Assembly: GCA_964016885.1 (NCBI GenBank)
Contig: CAXHJY010001328.1
Span: forward strand, 80,787 to 144,786
Source: Eledone cirrhosa
Taxonomy: Eukaryota
Reading direction: 5' to 3'
Length of the DNA: 64,000 bases
The notes under the pieces were generated by a model that had not been told where the DNA came from, did no database searches, and saw only the letters and a list, made by a program, of their open reading frames with translations. Position numbers and translations under genes: made by a program. Positions 23,222-36,638 of the stretch are shown here, one piece after another (position 1 is the stretch's first letter; each line of letters starts with the position of its first letter).

Positions 23222-23506
23222 TATTGTTATACTTTGGGAGGGTCATGTTGCCAATAAGAAACACACGCACCAGTTGCTTTCACTTCAATTTATTATAATA
23301 AATTTATAAATTTATAAATTTATAAATTTCTGGTTGGTTGGTTGGTTCCACAACCAGATAGTTGTTTATATATTGTCATAGTTCTTTCGTCACACACTCT
23401 GTGACCTCTTCAGTGACTGGGGATTCTGAGGTCACAGAGTGTGTGACGAAAGAACTATGACAATATATAAACAACTATCTGGTTGTGGAACCAACCAACC
23501 AACCAG
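23222..23506. mobile_element. Solo pLTR of the PLE at 60.3-62.0 kb, folded back
   Basis: 23222-23426 matches 60338-60545; 23428-23506 is an inverted partial copy. HHR at 23375-23417 on the minus strand. Confidence 0.9.
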
Positions 23507-24632
23507 GAGGATGCAGAACAATTATATGAAAGACGTAAAATAAAATTTTAAAAATTAAAAATTAAAAATTAAAAATTAACTTACTTACTACCTAGGTACT
23601 ATGACATAACTTATGTATTTGCTAGCATTAGTGTACATCTGTACGCATATGCTGGTAAATATACTAATTCTCTATATTTATCTCCAAATTATTTATTTGT
23701 CGAGCAAACTTGCCAAATCCACTACTAATTCATTGTAGTGGTAGTAGGCTTTTGTCATTATACCATCCCACTCCTTCTGACTAGCCTCAGTGTCACGTGA
23801 TTGATTCTTTAGAATCTGCCATTTGACCAGAGACAGTGAACTTTTTCAGTGCTATGGAATTCAGTCCCCGCTAGCTGTTCCATCCACCGAATTATTATTT
23901 TTATATGAGTCCCTAGTGTCCACGCATTGCCTGGAGTCTTAGCTGAGAATAGACTCCCCGATGACGTAATGAATTCTCGATGGTTACATTGCGTAACTCT
24001 CTTTATCCCATTACAGAAACTAATTAGTTGGAGTGAAAATTTTAGTAAGTAAGTTAATTTTTAATTTTTAATTTTTCTTATTTTACGTCTTTCATATAAT
24101 TGTTCTGCATCCTCCTGCATTGAACCACCTAGGTACTATGACATAACTTATGTATTTGCTAGCATTAGTGTACATCTGTACGCATATGTTGGTAAATATA
24201 CTAATTCTCTATAATTATCTCCAAATTATTTATTTGTTGAGCAAACGTGCCAAATCCACTACTAATTCATTGTAGTGGTAGTAGGCTTTTGTCATTATAC
24301 CATCCCACTCCTTCTGACTAGCCTCAGTGTCACGTGATTGATTCTTTAGAATCTGCCATTTGACCAGAGACAGTGAACTTTTTCAGTGCTATGGAATTCA
24401 GTCCCCGCTAGCTGTTCCATCCACCGAATTATTATTTTTATATGAGTCCCTAGTGTTCGCGCATTGCCTGGAGACTTAGCTGAGAATAGACTCCCTGATG
24501 ACGTAATGAATTCTCGATGGTTACATTGCGGAACTATCTTTATCCCATTACAGAAACTAATTAGTTGGAGTGAAAATTTTAGTAAGTTAATTTTTAATTT
24601 TTAAAATGTTCTTATTTTACGTATTTCATATA
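23504..24632 (+). mobile_element. Retrozyme-like element: ~2 tandem 537-bp non-coding units with HHR, plus a 5' inverted piece
   Basis: cctaggtactatg at 23591 and 24128. HHRs at 23953-24034 (core CCGATGA, mutated) and 24490-24571. 23504-23590 is an inverted copy of ~24043-24117. Confidence 0.85.
24490..24571 (+). ncRNA. Type I hammerhead ribozyme with extended stem II
   Basis: actcc-CTGATGA-c-gtaatg...cattac-a-GAAA-ctaattag-TT-ggagt; palindromic stem III. Confidence 0.88.
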
Positions 24633-24757
24633 TATACATATATATATATACATATATAGATATACATATATATATATATATATATACATATATATATATA
24701 CATATATATATATATATACATATATATATATATATACATATATATATATGTATATAT

Positions 24758-33787: not shown

Positions 33788-33924
33788 ATTATTTCTGAAG
33801 ACAGTATATATATGTGAAGGTATGTATATTCTCTCTGATAGTTTGTATAATTTTGTACATAGATCTTTTGAATATGCATACCTATTCTAACACATATATG
33901 TCCTAGAAACGATCGTAAAATAAT
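33788..33924 (+). ncRNA. Hammerhead ribozyme with ~100-nt stem II (mirror copy at 28646-28782, minus strand)
   Basis: attattt-CTGAAGA-[tatatgtg/cacatatg-like, aggtatg/catacct, tatattc/gaatatg]-GAAA-cgatcg-TA-aaataat. Confidence 0.82.
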
Positions 33925-36090
33925 CAACTTTTTTGTTTAATATAAGGAACTGTTTCTTTGTTTATTCATTATTTTTAAAATAATTTAACTTGACTCTGTT
34001 TTCCGTTTATCTTTCACCGAAAGTGATTTTTGAATGCATCTCTTCTTTTCATGATATCCGGATTACATTTTGGTAGATTTATCTACATAAATATACATAT
34101 ATATATATATATATATATATATATATATATATATATATATATATATATATACATATATATATATATATACATATATATATATATATATATATATATACAT
34201 ATATACATATATATATATATATATATATATACATATATATACATATATACATATATATATATATATACATATATATATACATATATATATATACATATAT
34301 ATATACATATATATATATATATATATATATATATATATACATATATATATATACATATATATATATATACATATATATATACATATACATATATATATAT
34401 ATACATATATATTTACATATACACATATATATACATATACACATATATATATATACATATATATATATACATATATATATATACATATATATATATACAA
34501 ATATATATACATATACATATATATATACATATACATACACATATATACATATACATATATATACATATACATATATATACATATACCTATATATACACAT
34601 ATATACATATACATATATATATATATAGTTAGAGAAGCAAAAAATTGCTTATTGTGATCCAGTTTTTGGTTAAGAAAGCCAGTTTCATGGATGGTTTCAA
34701 CGTACGGTTAGGGGTAACTCCACAAGTTTGAGTAAGAATTCCGTTCAATCTTGGAGTATAAATTATAAAAGAGAAAACACAGGTAAGCATTAAGAGAAGG
34801 ATTTTATCCAGGTATTTACGACCGTTTCATTGGTAAGTGCAACCTTATATTGCTATACTGCAAATAGCAGCCACTCAATTATTATATATATATATATACA
34901 CATATACATATATATATATATATACACATATACATATACATATCTATACACATATATACATATATATATATACACATATATATATATACTTATATATACA
35001 CATATATACATATATATATATATATATACACATATATACATATACATATATACATATATATATACATATATATATATATATACATATATACATATATATA
35101 CACACACACATATATATATACATATATACATATATATACACACATATATATATACATACATATATACATATATATACACACATATATATATATACATATA
35201 TATATATATACATATATATATATACATATATATATACGTATATACATACATACATATATATATATACATATATATATATATATATATATATATATATACA
35301 TACATATATATATATATATATATATATACATATATATATACACACACATATATATATATATATATACATATATACATACATATATATATATACATATATA
35401 CATACATATATATATATATACATATATACATACATATATATATATATATATACATATATATATACACATATATATATACATATACATATATATATACACA
35501 TATATATACACATATATATATACATATACATATATATATACACATATATATATACATATATATATATACATATATATATACATATATACATATATATATA
35601 CATATATATATATATACATATATATATATATATATACACATATACATATATATATATATACATATATATATATATATATATATATATATATATATATATA
35701 TATATATATATATATATATATATACATATATATATACATATATACATATATATACATATACATATATATATATACATATATATATACATATATATACATA
35801 CATATATATATACATATATATACATACACATATATATATCTATGTATATATGTATATATGTATATATATATGTATATATATATCTATGTATATATATATA
35901 TACATATATATATATATACATATATATATACATATATACATATATACATAGATATATATATATATATATACATATATATATACATATATACACATATATA
36001 TATACATATACATATACATATATACATATATACATACATATATATATATATATACATATATATAAACATATATATATATATATACATATA

Positions 36091-36638
36091 TATAAAGAAT
36101 TAGTATATCTCCCGACATATGTATACAGATGCATACCTATGCTAGCAAATATATATGTTTTGTCTTAGTAACTTTGTGGTTCTATGCAAGGGGATGCAGA
36201 ACAATTATATGATATACTAATTCTTTATAATTATCTCCAAATTATTTGTTGAGCAAAATTTGCCGAAATTACTACTGTGATTAATAGTAGTGGCTAGGCT
36301 CTGTCTTAATAGCACCCCCACTCCTGGCTGATTAACCTCAGTGTCACGTGATTGATTCTTTTGAATTTGCCACTTGACCAAGTAGGCAGTGAATTTTTCA
36401 ATGTCTTGGAATCTAGCCCCGCTCGCATTTTTTCATCCACTGAATTATTTTTATATAAGTTCCCACTGTCCTCGCATTGCCTGGAAGCTTAGCTGAGAAT
36501 AGACTCCCTGATGACGTAAGGCTTCTCTATGGATACACTCCGTAACCATATTTATCCCCTTACAGAAACTAATTAGTTGGAGTGAAATGTTAGTAAGTAA
36601 GTCAATTTTCATAACTTTCTTATTTACGTCTTTCATAT
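36091..36638 (+). mobile_element. Divergent copy of the 537-bp retrozyme-like unit, permuted and with a 5' inversion
   Basis: 36213-36638 is colinear with the unit; 36091-36212 is inverted. HHR at 36503-36583. Confidence 0.85.

Follow-up and report, generated by a model that had tools for sequence, protein, structure and literature searches.

A hammerhead-bearing repeat family of Eledone cirrhosa with two paired insertion ends

Metazoan retrozymes without long terminal repeats (non-LTR retrozymes) are tandem repeats that lack an open reading frame (ORF), carry one type I hammerhead ribozyme per unit, have a low GC content and are dispersed in thousands of copies in genomes that also contain Penelope-like elements. 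Circles of retrozymes have been described in coral, mussel and axolotl, and rolling copying of the circle by a borrowed, Penelope-like reverse transcriptase (RT) is put forward as a proposal in the accessible text of Cervera and de la Pena (2014, PMC4209133; 2020, PMC7229834). Unit lengths are given there as 150-450 bp (PMC7229834), and as 51-972 bp, together with a tie to Penelope terminal repeats, in the accessible text of Li, Clavereau and Pollet (2026, 10.64898/2026.07.22.740005). Here we describe a repeat of Eledone cirrhosa present at two loci of a 64,000-nt stretch (the window; assembly GCA_964016885.1, contig CAXHJY010001328.1, positions 80,787 to 144,786), and comparison of sequences indicates, with high confidence, that both loci belong to a family of this retrozyme class. 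The characters named in the opening sentence are all shared by the family (GC 36% here, the criterion being <45%), which differs from the described retrozymes in a long stem II with an inner loop and a predicted pseudoknot, in U17, in a unit of 487-571 nt and in consisting mostly of dispersed, two-armed insertions of one to two units that are known from genome sequence alone. A reading made earlier from the window only (hereafter the sequence-only reading) had considered the unit unusually long, which holds against the range of 150-450 bp but not against that of 51-972 bp. The family is new, its class is known and its Penelope-type footprint is clear. As an explanation we favor, at a probability of about 0.6, a protein-free repeat whose RNA would form a self-cut ring and be copied into TA tracts from two sites by a borrowed Penelope-like enzyme.

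The insertions also compare closely with those of endonuclease-positive (EN+) Penelope-like elements, in particular Poseidon of Anolis (Frangieh et al. 2024, PMC11167929; anatomy in Craig et al. 2021, PMC8557442), where two internal RT starts downstream of the cut produce a "tail". As in our family, the tail is usually at one end only, tandems are partial, an inverted arm is truncated at its 5' end and the targets are AT-rich or (TA)n. In contrast to these elements, the unit described here has no ORF and its tail measures 112-115 nt rather than 30-40 nt; in contrast to Poseidon, whose start sites are not homologous to the cut DNA, the start sites match the target (UAUA), strict pairing of the two ends was counted, and CT repeats are gained at one start. 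Neither fixed paired ends nor end stutter is described in the accessible text of PMC7229834 or 10.64898/2026.07.22.740005, and a literature search of titles and abstract starts, outside subscription journals and Repbase, yielded no paper in which retrozyme ends are said to be paired or to gain repeats.

The family and its two fixed ends

In the 3.0-Gb genome the window unit returned 3,464 first-look candidates. A 24-mer of the unit matched exactly at 1,696 places and a pattern for its hammerhead at 9,146 (with an intact core by construction of the pattern), while the reversed-pattern control of each gave 0; the repeat is therefore not a product of chance. The unit closes on itself in 57 distinct natural cut-to-cut monomers of 487-571 nt, and, instead of running into a Penelope-like ORF, it has none, its longest stop-free stretch being 83 codons. 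Eighteen reference monomers were 74-97% identical to the window unit. No match to Rfam was obtained within the window at the gathering score.

Positions in the unit are given below as phases, i.e., nucleotides after the predicted cut, phase 1 being position 24030 or 24567 of the window. A terminus was counted as site A at phases 66-72 (nearly all were at 69) and as site B at phases 175-192 (mostly 181-184), and the two sites are spaced 112-115 nt apart. Sample 1 was drawn from the first 100 of the 1,696 24-mer matches, all on contig 1, and after 9 overlapping fetches and 1 local duplicate were left out it comprised 75 loci with 128 arms, with a bias toward ribozyme-containing arms. Sample 2 was chosen on A ends and overlaps sample 1 in part; of the first 100 of 1,832 matches, 4 were not fetched and 3 were duplicates, which left 93 distinct A ends.

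The arms of sample 1 ended at site A in 60 cases, at site B in 56 and elsewhere in 12. Among the 49 inverted pairs in these 75 loci, 36 combined an A end with a B end, one was A+A, one was B+B and 11 had a non-standard end (p 2.7e-9), such that A+B made up 36 of the 38 inverted pairs with both ends standard; moreover, the single A+A pair (L238) became A+B once it was aligned to a closer reference. In sample 2, the A arms were partnered by a B end in 58 cases, by an A end in 1 and by another end in 6, with 2 partners cut off and 26 arms without one; an inverted partner was thus present for 67 of the 93, and 58 of 59 were A+B. Site A was read through in 2,212 places and is therefore internal to the unit. 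In their layout, the paired A and B ends match the Penelope tail signature. The sequence-only reading had proposed priming at an internal UAUA next to (TA)n, and the ends do lie there; however, there are two such sites, each used once per inverted insertion, rather than one. Fold-back copying of a single complementary DNA (cDNA) was considered as the origin of the inverted arm and rejected, given that the arms are often non-nested and have different fixed ends.

A TA tract of at least 6 nt followed 49 of 50 terminal A sites. Target duplications were flagged automatically in 6 of 91 insertions, of which, on reading, one was clean (L021, 30 bp), and L078 has a partial duplication of 9 bp that was not flagged; this differs from the plant LTR retrozymes, which have a type III rather than a type I hammerhead, located in their LTRs, and a 4-bp target duplication. 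The element end of L021 is separated from the 30-bp duplication by a TA run, which is missing in front of the left copy; this one case hints that TA may also be added at insertion.

Site B differs in that CT repeats are gained there. The template carries two CT repeats at this site: internal copies read CTCTATA or CTTTATA in 110 of 122 cases and had three CT in 1 of 122. Among the terminal B ends at all fetched element loci, none of the 43 of the CTTTATA type had a CT run, whereas of the other 69 there were 46 with 3-42 CT and 18 with one or no CT. Genome-wide, six or more CT were present at 517 ends, compared to 569 internal copies that are unexpanded and 0 that have five or more. The order of CT and then TA at the ends mirrors the template. 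These patterns point to slippage of the enzyme at priming as the source of the gain, although the long CT runs may have grown after insertion, and an alternative is that the runs derive from pre-existing TA-CT-TA targets; among 215 insertions, reconstruction of the empty site gave no clean example. A repeat number at the priming end that exceeds that of the template is familiar from the 3' repeats of long interspersed nuclear elements (LINEs) such as UnaL2, through template slippage, and from repeat addition by telomerase. Unlike in both of these, the slipped template here is internal to the RNA and two repeats long, and the likely enzyme would come from the sister group of telomerase rather than being telomerase.

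Two distances between cut and TA tract are likewise found in several further hammerhead repeats of the same loci and in one family with an ORF. In the window, a 310-bp hammerhead tandem at 57598-58901 comprises 2.8 units of 99% identity and an inverted arm, its ends lying 131 and 163 nt beyond the cut, and another hammerhead repeat, at 38192-38543 and 48157-48428, with a long AT-rich stem II and a palindromic layout, ends at about 43 and 135 nt. A sister family with units of 483-485 nt (L087:3690-4400, L129:580-1400) has the same layout, a long stem II and words shared after site A, with ends 75 and 185 nt after the cut, A17 and a canonical G-C at the base of stem II. By eye, a motif resembling ACTCC...GAGTG is present just after the first end in unrelated families (L040, L043, L169, L216, L004 and window position 38299 on the minus strand), and a similar motif follows site B in the present family; it is possibly an enzyme binding site, as a candidate only. 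Different hammerhead families lie tail to tail across one TA tract in L038, L043, L087, L117, L129 and L216, which suggests that the TA tract of each insertion serves as the target for the next.

The two loci and the hammerhead fold

The forward arm of locus 1 (23587-24632, plus strand) consists of 1.95 tandem units that terminate at site A. Its units, 23587-24098 and 24124-24632, are 96.3% identical over 513 nt with a period of 537, in agreement with the tandem seen in the sequence-only reading. The site A terminus (24624-24632, plus strand, 69 nt after the cut) is followed by a TA-rich tract (24633-24762) and has an internal read-through copy at 24090-24098, and the internal copy of site B (24200-24213, plus strand, 181-184 nt after the cut) retains the unexpanded CUCU-AUA template. 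An inverted arm that had been overlooked (23504-23590, minus strand, phases 14-88) stands head to head with the forward arm, and its outer end abuts a neighboring, unrelated hammerhead repeat at a 3-nt shared CAG, where the arm appears to have been cut short by deletion. The apparent junction of locus 1 is merely its 5'-truncation point. The abutting repeat (23230-23506; further copies at 59946-60545 and 61826-62452) is also two-armed, has a CUGAAGA core (from 23413 and 60532 on the minus strand and from 61839 on the plus strand) and ends at two distances from its cut, about 154-175 and 215-220 nt.

Locus 2 had been recognized as consisting of forward and inverted pieces, and it lies in a long TA-rich tract (34087-38110). 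Its inverted arm (36091-36212, minus strand, phases 63-184) ends at site B into the left TA tract, and this left end (36091), the second fixed end, had been missed. The forward arm (36212-36639, plus strand) comprises 0.82 unit, from phase 167 round to 69, with site A at 36631-36639, a hammerhead core at 36508 and a predicted cut after 36578. Identity to locus 1 is 80.6% in the forward arm and about 80% in the inverted arm. Judged by its sequence, locus 2 is a member of another subfamily, about 80% identical to the window unit, and not a simple decay product; insertions of this subfamily are internally about as uniform as the others. The right ends of both loci read ...TTTCATATA and then (TA)n (24632 and 36639), and the inverted piece of locus 2 crosses the apparent tandem junction in register, both as reported. 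The two pieces do cover one whole unit, with an overlap of ~18 nt; that they make exactly one is, however, a coincidence of this locus, since arms elsewhere in the family range from 25 nt to 6.3 units.

The type I hammerhead of the second unit of locus 1 spans 24474-24587 (plus strand), with the CUGAUGA core at 24495-24501, GAAA at 24553, stem IIa at 24503-24508/24546-24551, a distal hairpin at 24516-24538, a palindromic stem III and a predicted cut after GUU at 24566, the position already proposed. That of the first unit (23937-24052, plus strand) is likely impaired by the change of its core to CCGAUGA (at 23958). Stem II had been described as branched, but it is instead extended: a helix of 6 bp is followed by a 7x7 internal loop and a covarying hairpin at the distal end. 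The compensatory change reported between the two loci, GTAATG/CATTAC in locus 1 and GTAAGG/CCTTAC in locus 2, is present, and the covariation is stronger than the window shows. Across 132 distinct hammerheads, the third pair of stem IIa was U-A in 113, C-G in 11, A-U in 5 and G-C in 3, with 0 mismatches, and the sixth pair was G-C in 74, U-A in 55, U-G in 1 and unpaired in 2. In an alignment of 20 rows hand-picked to span the subfamilies, 89.5% of cells were paired and double changes numbered 41, versus 16.2 when shuffled and 2-13 when slid, counts that do not equal a probability as the rows are related to each other. The whole unit folded as a circle gave a z score of -4.9, with 0 of 60 shuffles as low, and the linear energy was nearly equal.

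The inner loop of stem II likely forms a pseudoknot with stem I, in locus 1 between the predicted loop I strand 24482-24487 and the inner-loop strand 24510-24515 (plus strand). Pairing was diluted in the MAFFT alignment (76.7% paired) and hence was counted from anchors: at least five Watson-Crick pairs were possible between loop I and the 5' side of the inner loop in 129 of 158 hammerheads, compared to 35 for the 3' side of the loop and 15 for shuffled loops. One subfamily alters both strands (3 copies: L124, L142, L168), and the 483-nt sister family retains a purine loop I opposite a pyrimidine loop II. Loop-loop tertiary contacts are common among hammerheads according to the accessible text of Perreault et al. 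(2011, PMC3088659), and stem III resembles the dimer-type motifs in that of PMC4209133. As far as these texts describe the minimal Penelope-type and the pseudoknotted hammerheads, ours differs in a ~50-nt stem II, a long stem I with an inner loop, an extra A before G12 and a contact predicted between two internal loops. A pattern with the same stem III and a short stem II gave 34 matches, and those listed were nearly all deletion variants of this family.

Self-cleavage of the unit RNA is predicted, and the evidence for it in the genome is indirect, namely a zone of stops 1-20 nt after the predicted cut. The 10-nt palindrome of stem III has a folding energy of 0 kcal/mol alone and -9.0 kcal/mol as a duplex, and because of this palindrome cutting would probably be slow and performed by a pair of ribozymes. 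Of the 132 hammerheads, 131 have U17, and in 130 a C is apposed to an A at the base of stem II. Cleavage after GUU is slower than after GUC.

Ring, linear multimer and other explanations

We regard a unit-length RNA ring as the probable template on the basis of family statistics. In sample 2, the cut is crossed by 74 of the 93 A arms, by 18 of them twice, and 150 of 151 cut junctions are exact in length (by a pattern that misses large indels), which led us to reject imprecise jumps between linear monomers. Units and arms within an insertion differ by about 1-5%, and most loci fall below the 10th percentile of between-locus distances. Stops rise 2.4-fold past one full unit at matched phase (40 versus 20.2 expected, p 1.3e-6). 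The sequence-only reading had gone further and claimed a closed circle. Circular permutation of tandem copies, however, is equally expected from an uncut linear multimer, and there is a stop zone at the cut on every pass; a covalently closed circle is therefore not established.

Several observations weigh against our preferred explanation or its ring, and many of them favor a linear multimeric template of the same element with the same start sites, of which roughly a quarter of the hammerheads are cut and whose arrays are renewed by unequal exchange or slippage in DNA, with no ring. We consider this alternative unlikely but not to be dismissed lightly. The rise in stops is gradual, steepest after 670 nt and without a step at 537, and could be mimicked by loss of tandem units through recombination. 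Stops are enriched 4.9-fold at phases 1-20 (background 4.6%), and their rate is similar at the first arrival (28/~123) and the second (7/~26); a second-pass stop at the cut is not predicted by a sealed ring and thus argues against it. In 10 of 58 pairs the two arms both stop in the cut zone, a higher number than expected by chance (p 5e-4), which would be the pattern if a single RNA 5' end halted them. Unpaired arms have no clear enrichment there (2/26) and an 8-nt palindrome lies at phases 7-14, within the zone, so that a joining bias may contribute to it. If a polymerase ran into the other primer on one ring, stops should pile up at that point; they do not (1 stop at phases 61-80), and such a collision was rejected. 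Three insertions (L047, L117, L119) are each heterogeneous in both arms for the same two alleles, and their shared variants are rank-specific. The six-unit array of L116 (G000:C1:199061000-199068000) has private variants throughout, but its units also alternate at two positions and its last unit differs, which fits growth at the DNA level; the alternation is a sign of either duplication of a two-unit block or a dimeric template. Consequently, long arrays were not accepted as evidence that rolling copying takes place. Cleavage may be weakened by U17 and the C-A apposition, features that suggest slow cutting. No terminal sequence common to the unit and a Penelope-like element was found in 50 loci of 10,597 candidates. 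Lastly, uncut RNA was the main substrate of anole Poseidon in vitro (PMC11167929).

Other results are harder to reconcile with a linear multimer. In a test of 116 two-armed insertions at sites covered three or more times, units of the same rank in the two arms were not more alike (248 mismatches in 6,698, 3.7%) than units of different rank (363 in 10,994, 3.3%; p 0.16), although source arrays differ internally by about 1-5%. More than two units were present in 5 of 128 arms only, and linear copying would therefore shrink lengths in each generation without a multiplying step. Sample 1 also contained no junction-point pair repeated between loci except for one local duplicate. It is improbable, in our view, that the hammerhead is kept as a protein-binding or pausing structure that rarely cuts, with the repeat moving as read-through RNA of tandems. 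The near-invariance of U17 and the C-A apposition, the lack of a stable stem III hairpin outside a duplex and the report that 8 of 9 Xenopus retrozyme dimers were uncut in vitro (accessible text of 10.64898/2026.07.22.740005) are in its favor, but the core pattern is intact at all 9,146 places (as the search demands), subfamilies that share 74-97% identity have retained stems I and II as well as the predicted tertiary contact, and stops cluster directly after the predicted cut. Still less probable is that the copies are terminal-repeat fragments of an unsampled autonomous Penelope-like element that are tandem only in DNA. Retrozymes are reported to derive from such repeats (in that same text) and the 50 loci cover a small part of the first-look candidates; against this stand the closure of the 57 distinct monomers, the absence of a shared ORF beyond any of the 128 + 93 sampled arms, and the nature of the unit matches among the 50 loci, which are separate insertions or short AT-rich matches.

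The stops in the cut zone, about a quarter of arms per pass, fit either a nicked ring or a part-cut linear RNA. Our preferred version of the ring is a monomer that is cut but would be held shut by stem I, as this model combines a barrier on each pass with uniform units. In the protein-free, ring-copying explanation that we favor, tandem transcripts would be cut after GUU, probably at a low rate and by ribozymes acting in pairs, and the 537-nt monomer would form a ring that is either ligated or kept closed by stem I alone. Where TA-rich DNA is broken, the two broken ends would then pair with UAUA, one of them at site A, the other at site B; the genomic pattern behind this two-site annealing is shown, and an enzyme that acts in this way is presumed. 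At its start the enzyme would slip on the dinucleotide template and add CT repeats, as the end sequences indicate, after which each enzyme would circle the ring and stop about 1 time in 4 near the cut, and the cDNAs would be joined head to head. Some insertions would later be enlarged by DNA-level duplication, as is seen in one or two arrays. A more specific version, in which two Penelope-type enzymes simultaneously copy a hammerhead-nicked ring kept closed by stem I, starting at two sites that match the target, and reiterate the dinucleotide template at priming in the manner of a crude telomerase, is doubtful on present evidence.

Possible partners, neighboring elements and significance

The genome is rich in Penelope-like ORFs that combine RT, CxxC linker and GIY-YIG, and GIY-YIG gave the 10,597 first-look candidates mentioned above. 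Our unit differs from an autonomous Penelope-like element in that it has no RT or GIY-YIG ORF and no link to an ORF at the sampled loci. One Penelope-like ORF family carries a hammerhead with U17, and its two TA ends lie at 121-130 and 164-183. In the window, further type I hammerhead-like motifs are located at 27532 and 57245 (minus strand) and at 20305 (plus strand), the last of which matches the terminal repeat found in a Penelope-like family with an ORF (L214, L215, L218, L223). Frames that by eye resemble Penelope-type RT occur at 15531-17242, 29595-31490, 40739-42082 (minus strand), 45388-47289 and 54577-55245, and only that at 40739-42082 had a Pfam RVT_1 match, which was below the cut-off. 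A frame at 13447-14148 (minus strand) resembles, by eye, the RNase H region of LTR-retrotransposon pol. Fragments of LINE-type RT with a PHD finger, which we take to be RTE-like, were located at 24763-26638, starting directly after the TA tract of locus 1, and at 741-2205 and 63276-64000.

The mechanism of tandem and inverted insertion and the microsatellite preference of Penelope-like elements have been named as open (PMC8557442). The family described here is a short, protein-free substrate for which two starts 112-115 nt apart, each used once, a stop of ~25% per pass at the cut and a CT gain dependent on one template base are predicted, and the stutter and the stop profile are the parts worth testing. 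If the stutter is enzymatic, it would show that telomerase's sister group can add repeats, and in a repeat-rich genome it would be a source of microsatellites. Should the nicked ring and the reiterating enzyme both prove true, these elements would themselves produce much of the flanking CT and TA microsatellite, and not only land in it.

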